This document shows positions 2,337 through 57,170 of a stretch of DNA of 64,000 nucleotides, in pieces; the stretch's first letter is position 1, and every line of letters begins with the position of its first letter. Source of the DNA: Candidatus Zambryskibacteria bacterium CG10_big_fil_rev_8_21_14_0_10_42_12 (GTDB taxonomy: Bacteria > Patescibacteriota > Minisyncoccia > Phycocordibacterales > 1-14-0-10-42-12); NCBI GenBank assembly GCA_002787695.1, contig PCXL01000011.1, positions 61,155 through 125,154 of the forward strand. The letters are read 5' to 3'. The notes beneath the pieces were generated by a model. It made no database searches and was not told the DNA's origin. It was given only the letters and a program-made list of their open reading frames with translations. The position numbers were made by a program, and so were the translations under genes.

Positions 2337-2693
2337 CTAGATGATAGTTTCAGGATTTATAATTGCTTTAGATGGCACACCTTTCTTTTTTAATTCTTCC
2401 ATAATGATTGATATGACAGACATTTGCATACTCATGCCCATTTCTTTTGTTTTTATAGCACCTTCTGTTTGTAATATTGAAAAAGTGAAGTCAGTGAGAT
2501 TATCCAAGTAAGATATACGTTCATTCATTACCTCTTTTGCTCCATTTGGATTAAATGTTGCATACCTAATTTTAAGCATCTCATTCATAACATCTTGGAT
2601 AGTTTTCTCAGAAGAACTTAGTTTAAGATAGTTTTTTGCTACCCATCGTGCGGTTGAGCCAGTAGCTCCAAATTTAAGGATGAATTTCAACAT
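2337..2693 (-). CDS. Hypothetical protein
   Basis: A 118-aa ORF with no recognisable motifs. The coding call rests on ORF length and composition only. Confidence 0.35.
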   Translation of the reverse strand: MLKFILKFGATGSTARWVAKNYLKLSSSEKTIQDVMNEMLKIRYATFNPNGAKEVMNERISYLDNLTDFTFSILQTEGAIKTKEMGMSMQMSVISIIMEELKKKGVPSKAIINPETII

Positions 2694-2731
2694 AATCTTA
2701 TTGTATCACTAGCATCTCATGCTATCTGTTA

Positions 2732-2770
2732 ATGCGGAGAGGGAGGGAATTTCTCCCTCGACTTAAAACT
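2732..2770 (-). repeat. Partial duplicate of the tRNA-Ser 3' end (T-stem plus acceptor 3' strand, T-loop altered)
   Basis: Plus-strand ATGCGGAGAGGGAGGGA at 2732-2748 is identical to 2912-2928 at the tRNA-Ser 3' end. The six-base T-loop is then different (AATTTC against TTCGAA), followed by the conserved CCCTCG. On the minus strand this gives GAGGG-AGAAATT-CCCTC-CCTCTCC-GCA preceded by a 14-bp-stem hairpin. Confidence 0.5.
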
Positions 2771-2865
2771 TTTTCGTCAAAAAGTTTTAGTCTGGGCACC
2801 GGCTCGCGTACAGGCACTACTGTGCCTGACTTCGTACGCTCCGCCGTTCGAATCCCACCTCATCC

Positions 2866-2898
2866 GTAAAACAAAAGTCGCCCGATGCTACGCATCGG
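2866..2898 (-). terminator. Rho-independent terminator 3' of tRNA-Ser
   Basis: Minus strand CCGATGCGTAGCATCGG (7-bp stem) followed by GCGACTTTTGTTTTA. Confidence 0.5.
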
Positions 2899-2914
2899 AC
2901 TCCTTTGTTTTATG

Positions 2915-3001
2915 CGGAGAGGGAGGGATTCGAACCCTCGGTACGGTTTCCCGTACACCGCGTTTCGAGTGCGGCACATTCGACCACTCTGTCACCTCTC
3001 C
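2915..3001 (-). tRNA. tRNA-Ser (anticodon CGA), type II with long variable arm
   Basis: Minus strand: GGAGAGGTGACAGAGTGGTCGAATGTGCCGCACTCGAAACGCGGTGTACGGGAAACCGTACCGAGGGTTCGAATCCCTCCCTCTCCG. It has anticodon loop CTCGAAA, variable-arm hairpin GTACGG-GAAA-CCGTAC, and T-arm GAGGG/CCCTC. Confidence 0.8.
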
Positions 3002-3070
3002 GTGCAATCTAGAACACTATCATATCTTTTGCATTTTTGGTCAAAAATGATATAGTTTCTGCCGTATTTT

Positions 3071-3142
3071 GGCCCTATCGTCTAACGGTTAGGACATCGG
3101 CTTTTCAAGCCGGTAATCGGGGTTCGATTCCCCGTAGGGTCA
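3071..3142 (+). tRNA. tRNA-Glu (anticodon TTC)
   Basis: GGCCCTATCGTCTAACGGTTAGGACATCGGCTTTTCAAGCCGGTAATCGGGGTTCGATTCCCCGTAGGGTCA. It has anticodon loop TTTTCAA and T-loop TTCGATT. Confidence 0.9.
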
Positions 3143-3200
3143 CATGAAAAATGAAGAGGCTCCCGCAAGGGAGCTTTTTCATGTGACCCTACGGGCAGAA
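3143..3200. terminator. Compound hairpin terminator after tRNA-Glu; its outer stem is an inverted copy of the tRNA 3' end
   Basis: GGGTCACATGAAAAA-TGAAGAG-GCTCCC-GCAA-GGGAGC-TTTTTCATGTGACCC. The inner 6-bp stem plus T-run is flanked by a 15-bp outer inverted repeat. Confidence 0.6.
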
Positions 3201-3330
3201 AGGGGTCGGGGAAACTGGGTGTTTCCCCGTGGAGGAAGGCAGTGAGTCCTCGAACGTTGGAAAACCGTGGGTTTCCAAGGTCTCGTAAGGGTCAATGAAA
3301 AATTATCTGTGACCGAAAGTGTATTCACGT

Positions 3331-3348
3331 TTCCCCGTAGGGTCACAT
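3331..3348 (+). repeat. 18-nt perfect direct repeat of the tRNA-Glu 3' end (TTCCCCGTAGGGTCACAT)
   Basis: Identical to 3128-3145. The two copies bracket a 185-bp hairpin-rich segment at 3146-3330. Confidence 0.8.
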
Positions 3349-3391
3349 CAGGACTGATATTCTCGATAGATAATTATGATATATTTTCTTC

Positions 3392-4222
3392 ATGAAAATA
3401 TATCGCTATGTTATAGATGGGCTTGTGATACTCCTGGCACTCTTTGTTTTTGGTCCACATTTGTATTATCTCTTGCCGTATGACTACGTAGACACAACTC
3501 TTCCGGACGATGTTGCCGATTATAATATTGCGATGTATACGTACCTGGAAAGTTTACCTCAAGATTTCCAGACATTACTCGCAGAGCCAACTGGTCTCAC
3601 TGGTACGCAGCGCTTTCGCACACAGGAAAATCGAAGCTTATTATCGGCAGAAGAAGTGTATGAACAGAGCAAGGACAGTGTGGTGATTATCGAGACGATG
3701 GATATGTATGGAGACCCATATAGTGGCGGCGGTGTTGTGCTGTCATCTGATGGGCTGATTGTCACGAGTTATCATCAATTGCAGGATGCAGAAAAAGTTG
3801 CAGTTTCACTTTATGATGGCAGCATTGTCAAAGTCACCGATGTGGTTGCATACGACGAAGCGCTCGATATTGCATTTATAAAGATCGATAGTGTCGATCT
3901 GCAGCCGATGCCGATAGGAGACAGTGCGCTACTTTCGATCGGTGAGCGAGTCTACTCCATCGGGCATCCTGAAGGATTTCATCACTCGTTTGCAGAGGGT
4001 GTGGTCAGTGGTATCCGTGACTATTCGTCTAGAGGTGAAGGGATACAGATCCAGATGACGAATCCGATTTCAGCAGGGAATAGTGGTGGCGCGTTGCTCA
4101 ATACCTATGGCGAGCTTGTGGGTATTCCATCGTGGTCTCTTGAATACGAAGACAATATCGTCTCTATCCAAAACCTCAATTTCTCCATCCCGATCAGGGA
4201 GGCGCTCGGAATTTTAGAATAA
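3392..4222 (+). CDS. Trypsin-like serine protease (S1C/HtrA-like protease domain, no PDZ), N-terminal membrane anchor
   Basis: Catalytic triad context: TSYHQL (His), DIAFIKI (Asp), GNSGGAL (Ser). 276 aa. Confidence 0.85.
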   Translation: MKIYRYVIDGLVILLALFVFGPHLYYLLPYDYVDTTLPDDVADYNIAMYTYLESLPQDFQTLLAEPTGLTGTQRFRTQENRSLLSAEEVYEQSKDSVVIIETMDMYGDPYSGGGVVLSSDGLIVTSYHQLQDAEKVAVSLYDGSIVKVTDVVAYDEALDIAFIKIDSVDLQPMPIGDSALLSIGERVYSIGHPEGFHHSFAEGVVSGIRDYSSRGEGIQIQMTNPISAGNSGGALLNTYGELVGIPSWSLEYEDNIVSIQNLNFSIPIREALGILE

Positions 4223-4348
4223 GTCCAAACCTTGAAAATACGGCTTTATAAAAGAAAATTTTGTTTTTATATATTATAAAGAGCTTAAATCAGGAGTCGT
4301 CTTTTTTATTGATAAAGTTTATTTTTTGGACTAATATCCATAATACAG

Positions 4349-5671
4349 ATGAATACCAATCAACATCAAAAAAATTATGAGGTGAAACTACCCAGAATAA
4401 TGACGATCGTTTTAAGCATTGCTTCTTATTATAGAAAAACATATTTTAATACTAATGACTTAGCTATATTAGGAAACAAATATAAGCAGGATATAATACG
4501 CACCAGGAAAGATAAGGAGCACTATGCTTTTGCGAATGACACGAATTTCGGCGGAATTAGAGGTAATCTCGCTACTTTGTTGACTTGGAAGGGGGTTATT
4601 AAAAAAGATAATAGATTAGTTAATGCGTATTCTGTTGGCAGAAATGAACAAATAGTTAATGCTGTTGCTAGTGGAAAAATTATGCTTGATCTGACAAACG
4701 ACAAAGCTCATACACAGAATGAGAATCTTTTAAAATTATTGAAGGCTGAGATTTACTTAAGGTCAGTCAGGGAAGGTCAGGCACATATAAAAACATTTAT
4801 AAAGAACAATAACCATATTGGTTTTGGGAGAGATCTTGAGTTTCCAAAAACTTCTGTAGTAAAGACCAGTAAAGGTGTATGTTTTTTGAGGGCAATTGTT
4901 AATAATTTTGTAGATAGTAAAAATGAAGTTCTTAGTTATAGAATAGTCGATTTATGGTCTTCTAAAAAAATTTTAAAAGCTAATATTCATGTCTTATTTG
5001 TTGTTCCTAGAGGTAGTGACTATTGGTGTTCTATCTATGCTTTGTCTTTGGAGGAACTGTGGATCAATAAACCTGCAATTATAAATATAAACTTACTAAA
5101 CAAAAAATGTTTTGATGACATTGGAAAAGAGTATGAATTAAGAAAATTAGATTATGCGATAAATAATTTTACGAAAAGAGATGCAAATATAAATTTGCGT
5201 ATAGGGTATGATCCAAGAGAATTTTTAATTAGATATGTTATTGATGAAACAAAAAATAAGAGAATAAGGGAAAGTGAATTTAGTTTGTTTACCAAGAATT
5301 TCTTGAATTGGAATCCGAGAATAAAAATTAATAATGTGGAGGTGTGTAACATTATTGAATCAAGTTCTGGTGGTGTTGATCTGACACTCCAGTTTGTTAA
5401 TGGATCTGAGGCAAAGGTTGAGCTTGAGCATAATTGGAAAAATTATATTGATCATGGTCATCATACTAGTAACGCATGGTCAAAATGTTGGTTGTATGCT
5501 GATGAGCAGTGGGATTTCGATAATATAAAAAATATTTTTCAAACACATTTTAAAAAGCACGGAGACCGTGTTCCAACAACATTTCTAACTAAAATAGATG
5601 GTAAACAAAAGATATTTAGAGTTGATTGGCATACTCTTGATGTTTCGGAAATCGATATTACAAATTATTGA
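4349..5671 (+). CDS. Putative restriction endonuclease of the adjacent R-M system (no recognisable family; C-terminal D...EAK PD-(D/E)XK-like motif)
   Basis: A 440-aa ORF in a strongly AT-rich block of roughly 30% GC. It is convergent with, and ends 6 bp inside, a two-methyltransferase operon. The C-terminal GGVDLTLQFVNGSEAKVELEH resembles a PD-(D/E)XK core. The call is by genomic context. Confidence 0.4.
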   Translation: MNTNQHQKNYEVKLPRIMTIVLSIASYYRKTYFNTNDLAILGNKYKQDIIRTRKDKEHYAFANDTNFGGIRGNLATLLTWKGVIKKDNRLVNAYSVGRNEQIVNAVASGKIMLDLTNDKAHTQNENLLKLLKAEIYLRSVREGQAHIKTFIKNNNHIGFGRDLEFPKTSVVKTSKGVCFLRAIVNNFVDSKNEVLSYRIVDLWSSKKILKANIHVLFVVPRGSDYWCSIYALSLEELWINKPAIININLLNKKCFDDIGKEYELRKLDYAINNFTKRDANINLRIGYDPREFLIRYVIDETKNKRIRESEFSLFTKNFLNWNPRIKINNVEVCNIIESSSGGVDLTLQFVNGSEAKVELEHNWKNYIDHGHHTSNAWSKCWLYADEQWDFDNIKNIFQTHFKKHGDRVPTTFLTKIDGKQKIFRVDWHTLDVSEIDITNY

Positions 5672-6414
5672 TTTGTGATTTTCTTTATGTTTTTCAATTC
5701 TTTTAGTCTATTGATCATAATTGCGTAGTATTCACTATCTTTTTCTATACTTATACTATTTCTCTCTAGGTCATTTGCAACTTTTGTTATTGTTCCACTA
5801 CCAGCAAAACAGTCTAAAATCAGATCGTTTTTATTGGTGAAAATTTTAATTAGAAATTCAATAACTTTCTCAGGTTTTTGTGTAGGGTGTTTTGTTCTTT
5901 CTTTTCCCATACATATCGGTGTTTCTATAAAATTATGCATCTCTCTTTGGTTGCTAAAGTTGAAAGTGTAGCTGATTTTTTTATTATCGAAACCGTTCGT
6001 TGCCCATACAATTGCCTCATTGGAAGACAAAAAACCATTTTTTCTAATTTGTGGTGCCGGATTTGTTTTATGCCAAATTATTGTTGCATGATGTGAAAAA
6101 CCTAACGATTCGTAGATCCGCTTAATATCACTTATATATTCTAACTTACAGAATAAAACTAAATTACCATTTTCCTTTAAAACTTTTTTAATCTCACTTA
6201 CCCACTTTCTGGTAAAAACCAAGAATTCATCATCTTTAAAATAGTCCCATTCTCCAAAATCAGAAGAAAGAGCTTTTCTACCTTTCAATAATTTCGTATT
6301 TTTATTGGCAGTATTGTAGGGAGGATCCACAATAACGGCATCAACTTTTCTTTTGATTTTACCTAGGGAGTTAAAAACATCTCCAAGGATTAGTGTGTGT
6401 TTGTTCTTTTTCAT
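5665..6414 (-). CDS. Site-specific DNA methyltransferase (beta-class N6A/N4C, DPPY motif before FxGxG)
   Basis: VIVDPPYN (motif IV), HPTQKP, DCFAGSGTT (motif I) at the C-terminus. Its start codon overlaps the stop of the upstream methyltransferase (TAATG), indicating translational coupling. Confidence 0.85.
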   Translation of the reverse strand: MKKNKHTLILGDVFNSLGKIKRKVDAVIVDPPYNTANKNTKLLKGRKALSSDFGEWDYFKDDEFLVFTRKWVSEIKKVLKENGNLVLFCKLEYISDIKRIYESLGFSHHATIIWHKTNPAPQIRKNGFLSSNEAIVWATNGFDNKKISYTFNFSNQREMHNFIETPICMGKERTKHPTQKPEKVIEFLIKIFTNKNDLILDCFAGSGTITKVANDLERNSISIEKDSEYYAIMINRLKELKNIKKITNQ

Positions 6415-7343
6415 TAGGTTTTATTTTTTATTCTATCAATCGACATCTTGTAGAACGCGTTGTCTATTTCGCATCCAGAGTAAAACCTGTTCATTCTTTT
6501 GGCTACCACAGCAGTGGTACCAGATCCGAGAAAAGGGTCGAAAACAATGTCACCGCTGTTTGTTGTTGATTTAATAATTCTTTCTAGTAACCACTCAGGT
6601 TTCTGTGTTGGGTGTATCTTCTTTCCTCCAAAAGTTTTACCTTTTGGCCAAATAGATCTCATTTGCTTGCCATCATTGTCTTTTTTCATTAAATCATAAT
6701 TGAAAATATTCCCCTTTCCTTTTCTGGCCCAAATAAAATTTTCGTGATCTGCTACGAATCTAGTACAAGACAAATTGGGTGTCGCATCTGTTTTATGCCA
6801 CAAGATTTCATTTAATAATTCAAAGCCAGTTTTTTCTAATAAATAACCGGTCGTATAAATACTGTGATAAGTTCCTGCCACCCATATTGCTCCATTTTTT
6901 TTCAAAATACGGAATGCCTCGTCTATCCATTTTTTCGTAAATAGTTCATAATTATCGATTATGTCCCAAAGACCTTTATTAGTATATAGGTCTTTGCCAC
7001 CTGATTTTGTAAATTTAATTTTAAAATTGCTTTTACTGAGATTATAAGGGGGGTCTGCAAAAATGAGGTCTATAGACTCGTCTTCTATTGAGCTCATTAT
7101 CTTTATGCAGTCATCGTTAAAAATCTTATTCTTGAGCCCGTCTTTTGTTATTTTATCTCTCGCCTCTTTTTTAGGTTTTTTAGAGAGGGTAAGTAGATAT
7201 GCTAATGAATCTTTTTCAATTCTTCTGGCACCTCCAATTTTAATAGAAGGAATTATATTTTTAGATATGTATCTTTTTATAGTTATTTCAGACACATTTA
7301 AAAAATCAGAAGCTTCTTTTATTGTGTAAAAATTTGGCTGCAT
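6414..7343 (-). CDS. Site-specific DNA methyltransferase (beta-class) with N-terminal HTH domain
   Basis: N-terminal MQPNFYTIKEASDFLNVSEITIKRYI (HTH). IFADPPYN, HPTQKP, DPFLGSGTT. Confidence 0.85.
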   Translation of the reverse strand: MQPNFYTIKEASDFLNVSEITIKRYISKNIIPSIKIGGARRIEKDSLAYLLTLSKKPKKEARDKITKDGLKNKIFNDDCIKIMSSIEDESIDLIFADPPYNLSKSNFKIKFTKSGGKDLYTNKGLWDIIDNYELFTKKWIDEAFRILKKNGAIWVAGTYHSIYTTGYLLEKTGFELLNEILWHKTDATPNLSCTRFVADHENFIWARKGKGNIFNYDLMKKDNDGKQMRSIWPKGKTFGGKKIHPTQKPEWLLERIIKSTTNSGDIVFDPFLGSGTTAVVAKRMNRFYSGCEIDNAFYKMSIDRIKNKT

Positions 7344-7581
7344 TGTTTTTATCTAAGCTCGTAAAAGTATCAATTGGTATCAATTTTAGCAGTAATGGGT
7401 ATTTTGGTATGGGGATAACGTTTGTAGGTTAAAACCAAGTATAAATTTAGGGGAGGTTTTAGCAGTGGTGTAAAAATATTGGTGGTACATATCTTTGGCA
7501 TGAACAAATTCGCGATAGGAGGTCTTTATATTGTGATCCTACGAAGCATTTAACGGAGAATTGTGATATAACGCTTATATT

Positions 7582-8523
7582 ATGCCAGCAAATAATCTTG
7601 GGAAAATTTCAAAAGTGGAGTTTAGGAAAGCGTGGAATCATGAGGCTTCTGATTTTACAAATTGGCTCGCGGAGGAAGAAAACCTACGCCTCTTGAGTGA
7701 TGAAATCGGTATTGATATTAAACTTATTCAAACAGAAGCAAGTGTGGGGAAATTTAATGTTGATATTCTGGCAGAAGAGGAAAACACAGGAAAGAAGATT
7801 GTCATTGAAAATCAACTCGAAGCGACAAACCATGACCATCTTGGGAAAATTATTACCTATGCGTCTGGCTACGAGGCAAATATTGTCATTTGGGTTGTGA
7901 AGGAAGCGAGAGAGGAACATCGACAAGCGGTCGACTGGCTCAATGAGCATACTGATGAGGATCTTGCATTCTTTTTGATACAAATAGAATTGTGGCAGAT
8001 CGGGATGTCTCCGTTTGCACCTAAGTTTGAAATGATTTCTAAGCCAAATGATTGGGCTAAAACAATAAAGCAATCAGTCGGAAGTAATAAAGTAACCGAA
8101 ACAAAGGCGCAGCAATTGCAATTTTGGGAACAGTTTAAGAATTATGCAAAGGACCATAATACAAATTTGAGATTGCAGAAAGCTTATCCACATCACTGGA
8201 TGAACGTCAGTATTGGGAGTAGCCATGCACATATGGCACTTTCTATGAGTTCATTTGATGAGGTGATGCGAACAGAGCTGTATATACCAGATAATAAAGA
8301 AATATATAATTTTTTGTATAAGCAAAGAGATAAGATTGAAAAAGAATTTGGCATGAAGCTCGAGTGGATGGAATTACCAGAAAGAAAAGCGAGTCGTATA
8401 AAAGTAGAAACTTCAGGCCTTATAGATAATACGGACGAATGGGAAACATATTTTGCATGGCTTCAAAAAACCGCCGAAGATTTTCAACGAGTTTTTTCAA
8501 AAATTTTAAAAAAGTATAAATAA
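7582..8523 (+). CDS. PD-(D/E)XK nuclease-fold protein (DUF4268-like)
   Basis: N-terminal FNVDILAEEEN...KKIVIENQLEATNHDHLGKIITYA is typical of NucS/RecB-like nuclease cores. 313 aa, adjacent to the R-M operon. Confidence 0.5.
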   Translation: MPANNLGKISKVEFRKAWNHEASDFTNWLAEEENLRLLSDEIGIDIKLIQTEASVGKFNVDILAEEENTGKKIVIENQLEATNHDHLGKIITYASGYEANIVIWVVKEAREEHRQAVDWLNEHTDEDLAFFLIQIELWQIGMSPFAPKFEMISKPNDWAKTIKQSVGSNKVTETKAQQLQFWEQFKNYAKDHNTNLRLQKAYPHHWMNVSIGSSHAHMALSMSSFDEVMRTELYIPDNKEIYNFLYKQRDKIEKEFGMKLEWMELPERKASRIKVETSGLIDNTDEWETYFAWLQKTAEDFQRVFSKILKKYK

Positions 8524-9362: not shown

Positions 9363-10078
9363 AAATGGGGGTCACCTGAAACACGGGTGACCCTTGTTCT
9401 TTTTTGTCTGAGCATTCTATATAATGTACACGCATAGGTAGACTCGCCGGTTTTCAGGCTCTCAGTTTTTGAAAGAAGATCATCTTCTGAACATGACGCA
9501 TTCTTACATGCAGTTTTTGTATTGCAAAAACCCAGAACGGAGCGTTTGGGGAAACAACCCTTAAAAAGGATTGACAAACGCTCCGTTCTGGGTTTTTAAC
9601 GTGCTTTCACCTTCATGAATGCCTTGCGGGCATTTTAATGATTTACAAGCTAAAGTCAAATATATGGCTCTGTTGGGTTTGACACTCAAAAAAATGTATC
9701 TCTTGTCCACAAAATGTGGATAAAGTTCGTTGACTCTTCATGGTCACGTCGTACCATTAGAAGTACGAGAACTGATGGGAAACCAGTACTCGGTCGCCGA
9801 CTATGCAATACAACTGGTTTCCAAAATTTTTCATAGCAGTATAAAACCGACAAACCCGGGGAAGAGGTATGTCGGTTTTTCGTAAAATTTGAAACCAGTT
9901 AGTCGAGAACCTCGACAATCCAAATGACAGAGCACAGAACGTGTTTGTGTTTTGATATTTGGATTGCCATTACGTATATCCCTTACACGGAGTATGCGTA
10001 TCGCAATTCAAAGTTAATGGTCGATATCATTCTCGTACGAGAAATTTATTACAAGAATTAATTAATCAAAGTAAAGAT

Positions 10079-10714
10079 ATGAAGAAAGTAACAGCAATTA
10101 TTGCTACAGTAGCATTTCTCGCAAGTGTGAACGTAGCAAACGCATGGTACTGGGGCGGATGGAATGATGATGACAATACGGTAAACATCAATACTACAAA
10201 TTCTGCAACAGTTTCAAATACAGTAACTACAAAGGCAAACACTGGCTCAAACACAACAGTTGGCGGTAGTGCTGGTAACACAGTATCTGGGTATGGCAAC
10301 AACGGTGGTAATGATGCTACTGGAGGAGATGCAGATGTTGATACTGGTGATGCAACAGCAGTTAGTGATGTTCTCAACAATGTGAACGGAACTGACATTA
10401 ACGTTGTTGGTCCAGACTGTGGTTGTGAAGGTGACAACGAAGTAAACGTAAACGTTAGAAATAGCGCAACGGTTACAAACGATGTTTACACCAAAGCAAA
10501 CACGGGCTACAACACAACAGTTGGCGGCAGTGCAGGTAATGATGTAGACGGCGCTACTCGCCCATGGTGGAGAAGACATCATGTGGTAAATGGTGGCAAC
10601 AACGGTGGTAATGATGCTACTGGAGGAGATGCAGATGTTGATACTGGAGAAGCAGTAAGTGGTACGGTGGTATCTAATTACGTAAACCAGACAATAGTTC
10701 GCGTACGACGATAA
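10079..10714 (+). CDS. Secreted repeat protein (signal peptide; internal repeats TKANTGxNTTVGGSAGN and NGGNDATGGDADVDTG)
   Basis: Start chosen at MKKVTAIIATVAFLASVNVANA (signal peptide). Two near-identical internal repeat blocks. Confidence 0.6.
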   Translation: MKKVTAIIATVAFLASVNVANAWYWGGWNDDDNTVNINTTNSATVSNTVTTKANTGSNTTVGGSAGNTVSGYGNNGGNDATGGDADVDTGDATAVSDVLNNVNGTDINVVGPDCGCEGDNEVNVNVRNSATVTNDVYTKANTGYNTTVGGSAGNDVDGATRPWWRRHHVVNGGNNGGNDATGGDADVDTGEAVSGTVVSNYVNQTIVRVRR

Positions 10715-37156: not shown

Positions 37157-37339
37157 CGACTTTCGTCGAGGAGAAGCGCTCCTCGACGAGTTTTTAATGT
37201 TTGTCAAAAAAGCAAAAATAAGCATACAATAGGGACTGCTTGTCCGGGTGATGGAATCCCAAGTAGCAAAGCGAAGCTTACTACGGGACGGGTTGGTAAC
37301 ATAGGAAAAATTACTGAGTGTTGTTTAATAATTTGGAAT

Positions 37340-37421
37340 GCCCGGGTGGCGGAACTGGTATACGCGCACGACTTAAAATCGTGTTCCGAAAGGGGTGCGG
37401 GTTCGATTCCCGCCCCGGGCA
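37340..37421 (+). tRNA. tRNA-Leu (anticodon TAA), type II
   Basis: GCCCGGGTGGCGGAACTGGTATACGCGCACGACTTAAAATCGTGTTCCGAAAGGGGTGCGGGTTCGATTCCCGCCCCGGGCA. Confidence 0.85.
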
Positions 37422-37610
37422 CAAGAATAAAAGAACTGGGCACGAATGTGTCTCGTGATTTTTATTCTCGCCTCGGGCGGGAATCGAAAGCCGGAGCGCG
37501 CGAAGCCGACCGTAGGTCGTGTGCGAGGCGGGGTCGCGACCTCCGTCGTGAAGATTTACCCAGCACTTATAACATAAGTGCTGGGTTTATCGAAACAGGA
37601 GAGTTGTGAC

Positions 37611-37628
37611 CGATTCCCGCCCCGGGCA
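37611..37628 (+). repeat. 18-nt direct repeat of the tRNA-Leu(TAA) 3' end (CGATTCCCGCCCCGGGCA)
   Basis: Identical to 37404-37421. The 190-bp segment between them contains hairpins and a partial inverted copy of the T-arm (GCGGGAATCGAA). Confidence 0.8.
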
Positions 37629-37677
37629 TCATATAAAAAGGAAATGCCCTCGCGGATGCGAGGGGCTTTATGGGGGA

Positions 37678-37851
37678 CTATGCAGCGTTGGCTGTCTCTC
37701 GGGCCAAAATAAGTTTTGGCCCGACTGGCTTGAGTTCACCACGTTTACCTATTTCAACATGGGTGAAATTTGCGAGCGTGATTAGGGCTCCTGGATTCAT
37801 GGCGACCAGGACGTCAATGACATCGTTAACAGGATAGACGCCAGGTTTCAT
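37678..37851 (-). CDS. Small hypothetical protein (57 aa) with its own hairpin terminator
   Basis: MKPGVYPVNDVIDVLVAMNPGALITLANFTHVEIGKRGELKPVGPKLILARETANAA. The stop is followed on the minus strand by GCCCCTCGCATCCGCGAGGGC plus a T-run. Confidence 0.3.
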   Translation of the reverse strand: MKPGVYPVNDVIDVLVAMNPGALITLANFTHVEIGKRGELKPVGPKLILARETANAA

Positions 37852-37988
37852 TTATATTGTTACTCCATACGAAAGATCGGGCCGAGAGTATTTTTATCAT
37901 ATCCTCGTATATATGCAACATAACGCATTCATGCATGCTTCATATGTAGACTGGGGGCGTCCTTTTTGTTATATTTCTTTTGTTTTAA

Positions 37989-38061
37989 CCGCCCATAGCT
38001 CAGTTGGTAGAGCAGTCGCCTCTTAAGCGAACGGTCGTAGGTTCGAATCCTACTGGGCGGA
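37989..38061 (+). tRNA. tRNA-Lys (anticodon CTT)
   Basis: CCGCCCATAGCTCAGTTGGTAGAGCAGTCGCCTCTTAAGCGAACGGTCGTAGGTTCGAATCCTACTGGGCGGA. It has anticodon loop CTCTTAA and an unusual C1:G72. Confidence 0.75.
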
Positions 38062-38076
38062 TGTAATTTAACTCTC

Positions 38077-38784
38077 GTGCTAATGTTTTTTATATTAATA
38101 TATGGTATACGCTATATGCCTTACAATATTAAATACTACAAAACATATCAGTGGAGTAAAAAGTTGGCATATATAATTGGACTTATTGCAACAGATGGAA
38201 GTCTGTCTGTTGACGAGCGTCATATTGATTTTACATCTAAAGATTTAGAGCTTATCAAAATTTTTAAAGATTGTCTGAAACTTTCAAATAAAATAGGTAT
38301 TAAGAAGAGCGGCACAAACAGAGTTTGTTTTTGTATACAATTTGGTAACAAGAATTTTTACAACTTTCTAAATTCTATAGGGATTTATAAGGCTAAATCC
38401 AAAACTATAAAAAGGATTGATATACCTAATAAATATTTTCCACATTTTTTACGTGGCTGTTTGGATGGCGATGGTAATATTGATTTATACAAACATGCAC
38501 AAAGTCAATATATGCAAATTAGATTTAGATTTGCATCTGCGAGTAAACCATTTCTAGAATGGATATTACAGGTATTAAAAATAAAATATAGTATTGAAGG
38601 AGGTTGGATTTATAGTCAAAAAAATAAATCAACCCATGTTTTAGTCTTTGGTAAGACAGACACTTTGAAAATTGGAAAAATCATGTATCATGACCATGCG
38701 AACTTATGCTTACAAAGGAAGTTTGCAAAATATAAACAATGGGCAAGTGGCGGAATTGGTATACGCGCTAGTCTTAGGAACTAG
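38077..38784 (+). CDS. LAGLIDADG homing endonuclease (double-motif), AT-rich; 3' end overlaps tRNA-Leu(TAG) by about 44 nt
   Basis: Two LAGLIDADG motifs, LAYIIGLIATDGSLS and FLRGCLDGDGNID. About 28% GC. It lies between tRNA-Lys and tRNA-Leu(TAG). Confidence 0.8.
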   Translation: MLMFFILIYGIRYMPYNIKYYKTYQWSKKLAYIIGLIATDGSLSVDERHIDFTSKDLELIKIFKDCLKLSNKIGIKKSGTNRVCFCIQFGNKNFYNFLNSIGIYKAKSKTIKRIDIPNKYFPHFLRGCLDGDGNIDLYKHAQSQYMQIRFRFASASKPFLEWILQVLKIKYSIEGGWIYSQKNKSTHVLVFGKTDTLKIGKIMYHDHANLCLQRKFAKYKQWASGGIGIRASLRN

Positions 38785-38822
38785 TGCCGCAAGGCTTGGG
38801 AGTTCGAGTCTCCCCTTGCCCA
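38741..38822 (+). tRNA. tRNA-Leu (anticodon TAG), type II
   Basis: GGGCAAGTGGCGGAATTGGTATACGCGCTAGTCTTAGGAACTAGTGCCGCAAGGCTTGGGAGTTCGAGTCTCCCCTTGCCCA. Confidence 0.85.
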
Positions 38823-38950
38823 CAGTGAGTTTTCGAACGAGGACAAGGACTAGCTTGTGATAACAAGCGTTAGTCTGACTCGAAGCCTGTTTGAGATATT
38901 TTGTGAGCTGGCGAAACAAAATATCCAAACACGGGTACTGAACCTGTAAG

Positions 38951-38974
38951 GTTCGAGTCTCCCCTTGCCCACAG
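38951..38974 (+). repeat. 24-nt direct repeat of the tRNA-Leu(TAG) 3' end (GTTCGAGTCTCCCCTTGCCCACAG)
   Basis: Identical to 38802-38825. The intervening 125 bp contains the hairpin GATATTTTGT...ACAAAATATC and a partial anticodon/T-arm-like stretch. Confidence 0.8.
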
Positions 38975-38984
38975 AAATATTAAT

Positions 38985-39059
38985 TGGAGGCGTAGAGGGG
39001 AATCGAACCCCTGCATAACGGTTTTGCAGACCGTCGTGTTACCACTTCACCACTACGCC
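38985..39059 (-). tRNA. tRNA-Cys (anticodon GCA), CCA encoded
   Basis: Minus strand GGCGTAGTGGTGAAGTGGTAACACGACGGTCTGCAAAACCGTTATGCAGGGGTTCGATTCCCCTCTACGCCTCCA. Confidence 0.85.
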
Positions 39060-39430
39060 ATTGTATCTGTATCGGACTCCAGATTATCATGTTCTTTAGA
39101 AAGAAGCATGTCGATACGCTGTCTATTTTTCTCTCCTTGATCGATATGAAAATCAATAGAAGGGAGTCTCGCAACTTTATATTTTGATTTGAGAAATGTG
39201 ACAAAATCTCTCCTGTTTCTATTCGCAAATAATGAGGCTTGCTCTTCGTATGATTCAGGAAAGACGGTAAACATGACAGAAGCCTTTTTCTTATCGCTTG
39301 ATAAGAGTACGCGCGTCACGGTAATGAGAGATTTACGATTTGATTCTTGTTCAAAGAAAAGGGCTGCACTTTTTCTAATTGCTTCAGTCAGCTGTTCATC
39401 CTTTTTTGCTTTTTGTTCAGGTGTGAGCAT
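39053..39430 (-). CDS. rbfA: Ribosome-binding factor A
   Basis: KSLITVTRVLLSSDKKKASVMFTV resembles the RbfA KH-like core. Located immediately downstream of infB, the conserved gene order. Confidence 0.75.
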   Translation of the reverse strand: MLTPEQKAKKDEQLTEAIRKSAALFFEQESNRKSLITVTRVLLSSDKKKASVMFTVFPESYEEQASLFANRNRRDFVTFLKSKYKVARLPSIDFHIDQGEKNRQRIDMLLSKEHDNLESDTDTMA

Positions 39431-46470: not shown

Positions 46471-46499
46471 AAAAACCGCCTGAGGCGGTTTTTGTTTTG
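46471..46499 (+). terminator. Rho-independent terminator after clpB
   Basis: AACCGCC-TGAG-GGCGGTT followed by TTTTGTTTT. Confidence 0.7.
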
Positions 46500-46624
46500 G
46501 TGCGCCGGGAAGGACTGCGAACACCTTGGAAACCCACAAACCGGGAAGGATTCGCCCCACATTTTATTTATAGAAACAAAACTGTTAACATTAATACTCA
46601 ACAGGTCAATTGTGAAATATAAGA

Positions 46625-47431
46625 ATGGCTAGACGCTGGACAAAAGAAGAAGAGAAGTATTATCGAGATGAATTAGTAAATTTATATTACTCCAAAAACT
46701 TGAGCATGCATGAGGTAGCAAAGGTTTTGAATATAAAATCAGCTACGGTTTTTGATAGATTGCGCCGGTTACGTATTAACACGGTGCCTCATCTTAAGAA
46801 GGGTTATCGAAACGTTCGCAAAGATATTCGTATCCCAGATTGTCATGATGCAAATTTGGCAGAATTTTTTGGCATCATGTTGGGCGACGGCCACCTTTCT
46901 CATTTTCAAGTAACCGTAACATTGGGAACAAAAGAATATGTGTATGTGCAATATGTAAAAAAGTTAATGGAAAAAATTTTTAAAGTGCCAGTTAAAATCT
47001 CAGAAAGGAAGTTTAAGCGAACGGATAATAAGCATTATACTGTTTATTTTGGTTCAACCGTAACGAGTCAGTGGTTAAAAACTGAGGGTTTAGTAGAAAA
47101 TAAAGTGAAAAATCAAGTCGATGTTCCAAAGTGGATATTTGAAAATAATATATTCATGGAAAGATTTTTAAGAGGGTTTTTTGATACTGATGGATCGGTT
47201 TATAAATTGAGGCACGGCATACAAATTGGACTAACAAACCGTTCACTACCGATGCTGAAATCTTTACAATTGATGCTAAAAACACTAGAATACAGGACGT
47301 CTGAAATCAGTGGTTTTCGCTTGTATATAACAAAGAAGCAGGATCTAAAAAGGTTTTTTAAAGAGATTAAACCGAAAAATCCAAAACATACTGCCAGATT
47401 TCAGGAATATCTCAATGCGTCAGTCGCATAG
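46625..47431 (+). CDS. LAGLIDADG homing endonuclease (double-motif) with N-terminal HTH; 3' end overlaps tRNA-Tyr by 15 nt
   Basis: Two LAGLIDADG motifs, LAEFFGIMLGDGHLS and FLRGFFDTDGSVY. N-terminal LSMHEVAKVLNIKSATVFDRLRRL is HTH-like. AT-rich. The stop codon TAG lies inside the tRNA-Tyr acceptor/D region. Confidence 0.8.
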   Translation: MARRWTKEEEKYYRDELVNLYYSKNLSMHEVAKVLNIKSATVFDRLRRLRINTVPHLKKGYRNVRKDIRIPDCHDANLAEFFGIMLGDGHLSHFQVTVTLGTKEYVYVQYVKKLMEKIFKVPVKISERKFKRTDNKHYTVYFGSTVTSQWLKTEGLVENKVKNQVDVPKWIFENNIFMERFLRGFFDTDGSVYKLRHGIQIGLTNRSLPMLKSLQLMLKTLEYRTSEISGFRLYITKKQDLKRFFKEIKPKNPKHTARFQEYLNASVA

Positions 47432-47500
47432 TGGCAATTGCACGAGACTGTAAATCTCGCGGCCTTTTGGCCTACGGGGGTTCGAGTCCCTCCTGGCGCA
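47417..47500 (+). tRNA. tRNA-Tyr (anticodon GTA), type II
   Basis: GCGTCAGTCGCATAGTGGCAATTGCACGAGACTGTAAATCTCGCGGCCTTTTGGCCTACGGGGGTTCGAGTCCCTCCTGGCGCA. Confidence 0.8.
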
Positions 47501-47568
47501 CAATAAAGTAAAACAGCTCGCAAGGAGCTGTTTTACTTTGTATTGCTCTGTTTGGTATATTTAATCCT

Positions 47569-56300: not shown

Positions 56301-57170
56301 TCAAAATTTGAGGGAAATTTCACTAGATATTTCTTTGATGAATCCTTTTATTTCTAGACTCATAAGGGCGATTTGTGCTCGGGATATTTCGAGACCTGAA
56401 TTTTGAATGAGTAAATCTTTTTCAAGCGATCTTTGTCCTAATGTTTTTACGATTTTTTGCTCGTCTTCGCTTAAGGCACTCATATCAATTTCTTTTTGTG
56501 ATTGTGCTTCTGCTTCAATGCTAAGTGCTTCTAATATGTCTTCTGGTTTTGTCACTGGCGTTGCACCAAGACGGATAAGCATATGTGGTCCGGCACTTTG
56601 TGATGAGAAAATTGATCCAGGCACGGTGAGTACTTCGCGATTGTATTCCGTGGCGAGACGTGAGGTTATAAGTGTTCCTGATTTTTCTTCTGCTTCTACT
56701 ACAAGCACAGCGTGGCTCATTCCTGCCATAATTCTGTTTCTTTGTGGAAATGACCATTTGGTTGCATCAAAGTCTGGTTCAAATTCAGATAATAATCCAC
56801 CACCACTTTCGGTAATTTCTTCTGCGAGGTGTACGTGTGATTTCGGGTAGAGTACCTTTGGTGATAAACCAGAACCGGGAACTGCGATAGTTTGTAAACC
56901 ATGTTTAAGTGCAGATTTGTGTGCAATAGAATCAATGCCGAGTGCGAGGCCGGAGACAATAGTAATGGGGTATCCTTTAAGGCCTTCCAGTAAAGATTCA
57001 CAGACTTCTTTTCCATACGGACTATACTTTCGTGAGCCGACAACGGTGAGAATTTTATTGTTTTTATGAGGAAGAGATCCAGCTAGAAAAAGCTTCTTGG
57101 GTTTGTCTGGTATCTCATGAAGAAGTTCTGGCCAGTCTGTTTGTGGTAGTTCTCTGATCTCGTATGCCAT
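56301..57170 (-). CDS. dprA: DNA processing protein DprA (Smf)
   Basis: TVVGSRKYSPYGKEV...VSGLALGIDSIAHKSAL Rossmann-like DprA core. Confidence 0.9.
   Translation of the reverse strand: MAYEIRELPQTDWPELLHEIPDKPKKLFLAGSLPHKNNKILTVVGSRKYSPYGKEVCESLLEGLKGYPITIVSGLALGIDSIAHKSALKHGLQTIAVPGSGLSPKVLYPKSHVHLAEEITESGGGLLSEFEPDFDATKWSFPQRNRIMAGMSHAVLVVEAEEKSGTLITSRLATEYNREVLTVPGSIFSSQSAGPHMLIRLGATPVTKPEDILEALSIEAEAQSQKEIDMSALSEDEQKIVKTLGQRSLEKDLLIQNSGLEISRAQIALMSLEIKGFIKEISSEISLKF

Follow-up and report, generated by a model that had tools for sequence, protein, structure and literature searches.

The tRNA-Glu(UUC) gene of Candidatus Zambryskibacteria bacterium CG10_big_fil_rev_8_21_14_0_10_42_12, a member of the Candidate Phyla Radiation (CPR; Patescibacteria), is followed by a 185-bp segment that is bracketed by two identical copies of the gene's own 3' end. 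Analysis of this locus within a 64,000-nt stretch of the chromosome (termed here the window, whose positions serve as coordinates throughout) leads us to favour, with about even confidence, the view that the segment is one copy of a large family of non-autonomous modules inserted at gene ends in Patescibacteria, a family that appears to be undescribed. Members of this family are approximately 100-250 bp in length, encode no gene, and occupy the 3' ends of conserved, highly expressed genes, where the last 10-25 nt of the target occur on either side of each module; of these two copies the proximal one forms the functional end of the gene, and the distal one is unused. The copies display a common anatomy and family relationships, a constant core combined with locally matched arms, variable occupancy, stacked gene ends, and a fold that is specific to the gene-sense strand.

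The anatomy of the tRNA-Glu locus is as follows.

3071-3142/3, plus strand: tRNA-Glu(UUC), the gene with the duplicated 3' end (ARAGORN; Rfam tRNA model, 64.6 bits)
3128-3145, plus strand: A0, the proximal repeat copy, an exact 18-mer TTCCCCGTAGGGTCACAT
3146-3180, plus strand: T, an intrinsic-terminator-like hairpin (stem 3159-3164/3169-3174, loop GCAA, then TTTTT), from sequence, inverted repeat and fold
3175-3195, plus strand: A', the inverted copy, 21 of 21 nt complementary to 3131-3151
3196-3281, plus strand: type-4 core, with GGGGTCGGG at 3202-3210, hairpin H1 at 3208-3228, CCCGTGGAGGAAGG at 3226-3239, a variable hairpin H2, and hairpin H3 (TTGGAAAACC-GTG-GGTTTCCAA) at 3257-3278
3282-3330, plus strand: extra 3' hairpins of the Glu copy, GGGTCAATG...CTGTGACC at 3289-3314 and GAAAGTGTATTCACGT at 3315-3330
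3331-3348, plus strand: A, the distal direct copy of the tRNA-Glu 3' end, again exactly TTCCCCGTAGGGTCACAT

The gene does not encode CCA, and is preceded by a promoter-like TTTGCA-17-TATAGT (3028-3056). Since the tRNA ends at 3142/3, A0 corresponds to tRNA positions 58-73 plus three trailer bases, and thus comprises the last 2 nt of the T-loop, the 3' strands of the T-stem and acceptor stem, the discriminator, and the trailer CAT. An original prediction on this stretch had described the 18-nt direct repeat; the repeat is indeed exact, and its three matches in the window (the third being an inverted copy of TTCCCCGTAGGGTCACAT at 3181-3198, with 2 mismatches) were equalled in none of 100 dinucleotide-preserving shuffles. 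The inverted copy, which had been put at 15 nt, proved to be longer, with perfectly complementary 21-nt arms at 3131-3151 and 3175-3195. These arms enclose GCTCCC-GCAA-GGGAGC followed by TTTTT (3159-3179), a G+C-rich hairpin and T run of the kind that defines an intrinsic terminator, so that hairpin T forms the apex of a long palindrome (3131-3195) to which the predicted 'compound terminator hairpin' well applies. A terminator scan listed the Glu stem (3159-3174) on the minus strand only, and the plus-strand TTTTT was read from the sequence.

The last 15 nt of A' (3181-3195) are perfectly complementary to the distal copy (3334-3348) as well, and this A':A pairing closes a multi-hairpin domain. 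When folded, as had been proposed, the segment was found to be very strongly structured (minimum free energy -95.7 kcal/mol, z = -8.0 relative to shuffles). The boundary of its repeat is sharp, with 18 of 18 positions identical and no similarity beyond; the sole open reading frame (ORF) within it encodes 55 aa in antisense. The core proper (CCCGTGGAGGAAGG...GGAAAACCGTGGGTTTCC) has homologues at the loci L004 and L067, and the additional hairpins at 3282-3330 are similar to the 3' portions of the type-1 and type-2 cores.

The generality of this arrangement was established by a search of metagenome contigs for the type-4 pattern CCCGTGGAGGAAGG-N(1-30)-GGAAAACCGTG, which matched at least 120 contigs. 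Among the matches listed, approximately 65 lie no more than 150 nt 3' of a tRNA gene on the same strand, representing more than 30 anticodon species; one follows a tmRNA gene, and others lie directly 3' of rpsI, rplK, rpmG and uvrC. In an alignment of 37 copies, GGGGTCGGG and GGGTTTCC-AG are almost invariant even though both fall outside the search pattern, and H1, H2 and H3 covary. The same blocks are present in the window at 3202-3281 (GGGGTCGGG, H1, CCCGTGGAGGAAGG, H3 in the form GGAAAACC-GTG-GGTTTCC, and AG), and those of the Glu copy are invariant or covarying in the 36 other copies. Cores of 65 nt are 97-100% identical across different targets, and the sequence directly after the core always repeats the local gene end, as tabulated for the junctions of 70+ other copies. 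The Glu copy displays the same layout, being in gene-sense orientation with an inverted copy before the core and a direct copy after it. Upstream of the type-4 modules at L142 and L171 lies a sequence resembling the 3' half of an initiator tRNA-Met (…GCATAACC…CCCCCGCAACA) that was not called by ARAGORN; it may represent a tRNA with an intron, such as has been reported for Patescibacteria.

Similar modules are found elsewhere in the window. An examination of up to 450 nt downstream of its ten tRNA genes for matches to the tRNA tail found 5-7 nt at six of the ten and 17-24 nt at the other four, namely tRNA-Ser(CGA), Glu, Leu(UAA) and Leu(UAG), where the repeats lie 127-188 nt downstream and stand out from a background of 5-8 nt. 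An inverted copy is found 35-57 nt downstream of tRNA-Glu, of Leu(UAA) and, in degenerate form, of Ser. The sister modules are as follows.

2729-2913, minus strand: Ser module, after tRNA-Ser(CGA) (2914-3001), with a terminator hairpin and a type-2 core
37422-37628, plus strand: Leu(UAA) module, after tRNA-Leu(UAA) (37340-37422), with A0 at 37404-37421, a hairpin, A' at 37471-37486 and A at 37611-37628
38824-38974, plus strand: Leu(UAG) module, after tRNA-Leu(UAG) (38741-38823), a 127-nt structured segment followed by a 24-nt exact copy of the tRNA end
46497-46570, minus strand: a decayed type-4 module, with a 3' fragment resembling tRNA-Tyr, a core end that has an internal deletion (GTGGGTTTCCAAGGTGTTCGCAG), and a second copy TCCTTCCCGGCGCACCA

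The Ser, Glu and Leu(UAA) modules fold alike (z = -8 to -11), with a terminator hairpin that is followed by a branched domain closed by A':A, and the Ser and Leu(UAA) cores have in common a homologous hairpin with a GGA/GA internal loop. The Leu(UAA) module carries a type-1 core, with helical elements P1 (37490-37529) and P2 (37530-37611), and is matched at 37478-37618 by the covariance model R1 with 65.6 bits; the same model matches the Ser module weakly (2747-2857). The Ser module further contains a degenerate inverted copy (~2846-2866) and a T-arm-like hairpin along with 17 nt identical to the tRNA end (2732-2748), and its terminator part is listed by the terminator scan. The proximal and distal copies of the Leu(UAG) module lie at 38802-38825 and 38951-38974. 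The tRNA-Ser(CGA) and tRNA-Glu genes themselves are divergent, each with its own module at its 3' side, and overlapping promoter-like sites occupy the interval between them (3002-3070; minus strand TTGACC-17-GATAGT, plus strand TTTGCA-17-TATAGT).

The original prediction had further linked the tRNA-Glu segment to the region upstream of a second LAGLIDADG gene (46505-46560) through a shared motif. The motif is real but lies on the opposite strand (GTGGGTTTCCAAGGT at 3267-3281 is the reverse complement of 46523-46537), and the site is the decayed sister module beside the tRNA-Tyr 3' fragment rather than a feature tied to the LAGLIDADG gene. This decayed module still carries the tRNA-Tyr end a second time, CCA included, and is adjoined by a terminator shared with clpB. 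The 5' part of the old minus-strand tRNA-Tyr gene is gone, an intact tRNA-Tyr lies on the other strand (47417-47501), and an intact counterpart of the module at a tRNA-Tyr is found at L175. Two ORFs with Pfam LAGLIDADG matches, both of low G+C content, run into the 5' ends of tRNA genes in the window (38077-38784 into tRNA-Leu(UAG) at 38741, and 46625-47431 into tRNA-Tyr at 47417). These two loci look like endonuclease-plus-tRNA cassettes, the second of which seems to have replaced the old minus-strand tRNA-Tyr.

The distribution of modules in other genomes was assessed with a tRNA-Glu pattern scan of one genome per species, which yielded 120 loci, mostly from Patescibacteria. Approximately three quarters of about 100 tRNA-Glu loci carry no module at all; the occupied loci carry at least four core types, and the same type recurs at different tRNA genes. 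In those genomes the same arrangement is found at approximately 25 further tRNA genes (Glu, Ser, Val, Arg and Leu), and at many more loci the core is present with shorter or decayed arms. Repeat length ranges from approximately 9 to 29 nt, with one case of 41 nt that is probably a partial copy of a tRNA gene. The closest relative, L004 (its downstream protease is 88% identical), carries a homologous and shorter module at the same site, in which two hairpins differ by compensatory changes, the tRNA end is present in a variant of its own, and the part matching 3282-3330 is missing; beyond that relative, homologues of the protease do not adjoin tRNA-Glu.

The comparison of tRNA-Glu loci that had been suggested as a check thus gave no picture of an identical segment conserved everywhere without empty sites. 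Because most of these loci are empty, the rest carry several core types, and the relative's copy is shorter, the insertional origin implied by the predicted 'mobile or integrative scar' is supported, whereas a private scar of one event, or a prophage remnant, is not, given a large multi-copy family. Occupancy also varies among relatives beside the Ser module: the gene adjoining that module is preceded by tRNA-Ser(CGA) with a type-2 module in the window, tRNA-Ser(GCU) with type 1 at L135 and L138, and no tRNA at L131 and L136. At L138 (3470-3760), a 148-nt unit comprising the promoter region and the first 17 nt of tRNA-Ser(GCU) occurs twice in tandem upstream of the real tRNA.

The covariance model for the type-1 core placed 22 of 27 examined matches (754 kb) at 10-63 nt 3' of a tRNA gene on the same strand. 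In the type-1 alignment 90% of cells are paired, relative to 34-47% when partner columns are slid, and double-sided changes are found in 176 cells as opposed to 16-42 in the slid controls, values that are somewhat inflated by fitting of the alignment to the model. A G.U pair is kept in 22 of 28 sequences, and, together with the covariation, therefore identifies the gene-sense strand as the folding strand. In type-2 and type-3 copies a hairpin at the junction of acceptor and T-stem interrupts A', resulting in a tRNA-like outline, and the loop sequences AACUGCUU, CAGCAG and UGACGA are conserved. A type-1 module at L061 (~6040-6225, minus strand) lies between tRNA-Glu and the next tRNA gene and has no U-tract terminator, and must therefore belong to the tRNA precursor transcript at that locus.

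Modules at the ends of protein genes provide further evidence of insertion. There the last few codons and the stop codon are repeated, with synonymous differences between the copies; the two ends of rpsI at L154, for instance, read CAG TGG AGC AAG AGA TAA and AAG TGG TCT AAA CGA TAA, and the inverted copy at that locus is perfectly complementary to the proximal end, which is the functional one. At the rplK gene of L156, three successive ends (MGVEVK*, MGVEIK* and VEVK*) occur, with a type-4 core between the first and second and a type-1 core between the second and third. Insertion that recurs at one gene end yields such a stack of alternative ends that were once coding. In three cases (L044, L053 and L091) cargo genes lie between a tRNA end and a partial copy with its module, and L061 provides the uninterrupted counterpart of L044. 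These tRNA-Glu cargo spans (L044 6290-7180, L091 5130-7530 and L053 3340-4010) contain no integrase or other recombinase; as judged by eye, L044 carries a pyrophosphatase-like ORF along with a small unannotated ORF, L091 a NUDIX-like ORF and others, and L053 a decayed, recombinase-like ORF. The interpretation of the last as a recombinase pseudogene was rejected for want of Pfam support.

A route by which such modules might arise can be proposed from this anatomy, in which a proximal gene end is followed in turn by a terminator hairpin, an inverted gene end, a conserved branched core and a distal copy. Entry would occur by a recombination event that duplicates or replaces the gene end, so that an essential gene stays intact. 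The arms would provide target specificity, with either A0:A' or A':A pairing into a duplex copy of the target, much as in a folded single-stranded attachment site, and the conserved core would be recognised as a single strand (RNA or single-stranded DNA), in sense orientation, by machinery acting in trans. Inserted copies may later decay by deletion, for which the relative's copy without 3282-3330 and the remnant at 46497-46570 would be examples. A stronger form of this proposal, which we regard as a possibility to be entertained tentatively, is a programmable mobile element, in which the constant structured core (as RNA or single-stranded DNA) recruits a host or unlinked enzyme and the variable arms choose the site of insertion, either by base pairing or by presenting a duplex mimic of the target. 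Re-targeting such an element would need only new arms, which would explain the presence of one core at more than 30 gene ends.

Several observations weigh against an insertional family. No locus could be compared in filled and empty form between near-identical strains, such that insertion and exact target duplication were not directly observed, and no mobilising enzyme could be linked to the modules. The type-4 loci from metagenomes, having been chosen by the presence of the core, are uninformative on frequency. In the remainder of the L154 rpsI gene AGA is used 6 times and CGA once, which fits the proximal copy and suggests that this copy is the native one; distal copies at several rpsI loci also resemble one another, and the distal copy may travel with the element instead of being the displaced host end. 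That cores at different targets are nearly identical could stem from strong functional constraint acting on a host RNA instead of recent movement, and the sense-specific fold, the fixed orientation and the L061 module without a terminator would also fit a transcribed, functional RNA.

That last explanation is the strongest competitor, and we consider it rather doubtful. It holds that the segment is a host-functional structured RNA, produced by read-through or co-transcription, whose closing helix pairs a duplicate of the gene's 3' end with the complement of that end; the RNA might, for example, mimic an acceptor/T-arm and so borrow tRNA-processing enzymes, or might stabilise or terminate transcripts, and the repeats would be purely structural. 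On the gene-sense strand the module shows covariation and keeps a G.U pair, as such an RNA would; also in keeping with it are an orientation that is always that of the upstream gene, a position 10-63 nt behind it, the conserved loops, the split A' with its tRNA-like outline in type-2 and type-3 copies, and the location of the L061 module between two tRNA genes; the lack of the core in viral contigs is also in its favour. However, a canonical terminator precedes most copies, which little transcript would then be expected to reach, and the modules are patchily distributed, orthologous tRNA genes carrying different core types. The P2-like part is lost in the relative with the 88% identical protease, and decayed copies are common. 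A structural role for the repeats fails to account for stacked coding ends with intact stops and synonymous differences, and the repeat includes trailer bases rather than CCA, which marks it as a copy of the gene and not of the mature tRNA. With Rfam 15, only tRNAs reach the gathering score in the window, and permissive scans found nothing relevant at E <= 10 (2500-3500) or E <= 5 (37300-39100), so that no match to an Rfam family speaks for this RNA.

Candidates within the realm of RNA function were likewise tried and rejected. The cores, inspected by eye, fitted none of the hammerhead, twister, hepatitis delta virus-like, K-turn, RNase P P4 or 16S helix 45 motifs; a kissing loop between AACUGCUU and CAGCAG was unsupported in L031 and L061; and a small peptide (GGAGG, then UUG, reading into the distal copy) was in frame at L154 and out of frame at L151. 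A retrovirus-like primer-binding site, in which A' would pair with the 3' end of a mature tRNA, was discarded since it is the genomic trailer (CAT, CAAA), not CCA, that A and A' reproduce.

An ordinary attL/attR scar, in which a prophage or island inserted through a tyrosine or serine integrase into the 3' end of tRNA-Glu and was then almost completely deleted to leave 185 bp, appears unlikely. A direct repeat that extends from the T-loop to just past the end of a tRNA is the classical footprint of integration into tRNA genes. Large serine recombinase genes adjoin tRNA-Glu and tRNA-Ser in other Patescibacteria, tyrosine-recombinase-like ORFs are seen at L034 and L038 (by C-terminal motif only), cargo blocks bounded by tRNA-end repeats exist, and a low-G+C block with methylases follows the module in the window. 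Random deletion, however, would not leave the same architecture and core at four tRNA genes of the window and at more than 30 gene ends, and would leave the inverted copy unexplained. The serine-recombinase elements use a different sublocation, overlapping the tRNA by 41 or 62-65 nt; the core was found in 0 of 2.9 million viral contigs; and no remnant of an integrase was found in or beside the modules of the window. ORFs of approximately 320 to 580 aa lie antisense beside tRNA-Glu at L028, L068, L098, L099 and L087, with their last 41 or 62-65 nt overlapping the 3' part of the tRNA; those of L098 and L099 are large serine recombinases (Pfam Resolvase and Recombinase in both, with a Zn ribbon in L099).

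A local accident, either a decayed tandem duplicate of tRNA-Glu or a palindrome or duplication formed by template switching at the terminator hairpin, is highly improbable: template switching can extend terminator hairpins into long palindromes, A' exactly mirrors the sequence upstream of the hairpin with its trailer included, and a tRNA 5' region is duplicated in tandem at L138, but the boundary of the repeat is sharp, Rfam scans found no tRNA-like remains in the intervening segment (on which two grounds a decayed tandem tRNA gene was rejected), and the core is common to many loci of other organisms, in at least 120 metagenome contigs. The remaining weight lies with readings that are not separated from one another, for example hybrids in which one core would be mobile as well as functional.

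Comparison with known systems further defines the place of the modules. They resemble elements that integrate into tRNA and tmRNA genes in their insertion at the 3' end, in the preservation of the gene by a duplicated end, in the unused distal copy, and in tandem stacking, and the Glu segment, like such elements, is bounded by a direct repeat of a tRNA 3' end. They differ from them in having only 100-250 bp without integrase or other ORF, in using one core for more than 30 targets, in carrying an inverted copy of the target, in the absence of the core from viral contigs, and in a range of targets that includes the last codons of ribosomal protein genes. No integrase or recombinase, intact or as a remnant, was found within the Glu segment or among the scanned ORFs of the window. 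A free, attP-bearing form was likewise not found on phages, either with the core in the 2.9 million viral contigs or in a search of phage records with 2400-4300, which returned only tRNA matches; plasmids were not searched. The junctions of the modules therefore match those of integrative elements in tRNA genes, whereas their size, lack of genes, single core, inverted copy and absence from viruses do not.

The attP(+) site of CTX-phi (acted upon by XerCD) and the attC sites of integrons recombine as folded single strands. The modules are similar in that inverted and direct target-like copies, separated by approximately 100 nt of structured spacer, could form a duplex mimic from one strand, in their strand-specific folding, and in an integrated layout of site, cargo, inverted site, spacer and site. 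CTX-phi and integrons each rely on one fixed site (dif, or R boxes with GTTRRRY) and a known recombinase, whereas the arms of the modules differ at every target, no recombinase is linked to them, and the cargo is usually only the terminator. A search for integron attC boxes (RYYYAAC/GTTRRRY) found no GTTRRRY at module junctions, and IntI was not searched for genome-wide.

Among short repeats, the repetitive extragenic palindromic families (REP/BIME-REPIN), miniature inverted-repeat transposable elements (MITEs), Rickettsia palindromic elements and Correia elements are also gene-less, multi-copy, structured and gene-flanking, and they often act as or contain terminators and are mobilised in trans. 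These families, however, have the same termini in every copy with target duplications of 0-10 bp, and carry neither a direct nor an inverted copy of a neighbouring gene's end, whereas the arms of the modules differ from locus to locus, match the local gene and vary in repeat length.

In the hybrid atp6 gene of mitochondria of the fungus Allomyces, a homing-endonuclease element replaces the 3' end of the gene. As in that case, a foreign or duplicated 3' coding end completes the gene at the protein-gene modules, and the former end persists downstream, unused and with synonymous differences; homing elements encode an endonuclease, whereas the modules encode nothing, and the LAGLIDADG genes of the window lie outside them, at the 5' side of other tRNA genes. 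Diversity-generating retroelements, which are common in CPR genomes, similarly have a second copy of a gene's 3' end downstream of a hairpin. The repeat of the modules is 10-25 nt as opposed to approximately 100 nt, the differences between copies are not adenine-specific, and no reverse transcriptase or avd lies nearby; at the tRNA-Glu locus the repeat is 18 nt with identical copies, and no reverse transcriptase is found among the scanned ORFs of the window.

Literature searches covering repeats at CPR tRNA genes, miniature integrative elements and the core sequences turned up no account of the family, and a paper on group I introns in the tRNA genes of Patescibacteria (PMC13011429) makes no mention of these repeats. 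CPR bacteria have tiny genomes with single-copy tRNA genes, and a repeat family that occupies the ends of their most conserved genes, those for tRNAs, tmRNA and ribosomal proteins, and leaves these genes unbroken is a notable feature of genome biology in a sizeable section of the bacterial tree. The modules account for spurious tRNA fragments, and for contig breaks beside tRNA genes, in CPR assemblies. If insertion were specified by nucleic acid, it would be of interest for programmable DNA insertion; if the core were a functional RNA, it would represent a new and widespread RNA class.

The window itself is ordinary chromosome, with gyrA, clpB, ftsZ, ftsA, infB, topA, parB and dprA, and the identical sequence is present in other samples; the protease beside the tRNA-Glu module matches a protein of Candidatus Zambryskibacteria bacterium CG10_big_fil_rev with 100% identity, and no recombinase, transposase or reverse transcriptase was found among its annotated and scanned ORFs. 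A block of low G+C content (32-34%; 4349-8500) directly follows the protease downstream of the tRNA-Glu module, and encodes a 440-aa ORF of no known identity, two N6/N4 DNA methylases and a DUF4268 protein; the genes found there in L004 are different. A 61-nt repeat (10294-10354 and 10594-10654, 300 nt apart, with 97% identity) lies inside an ORF (9959-10714) that has no Pfam match. The dprA gene, for DNA-processing protein A, lies at 56301-57170; its presence agrees with the idea that this organism takes up foreign single-stranded DNA and recombines it.

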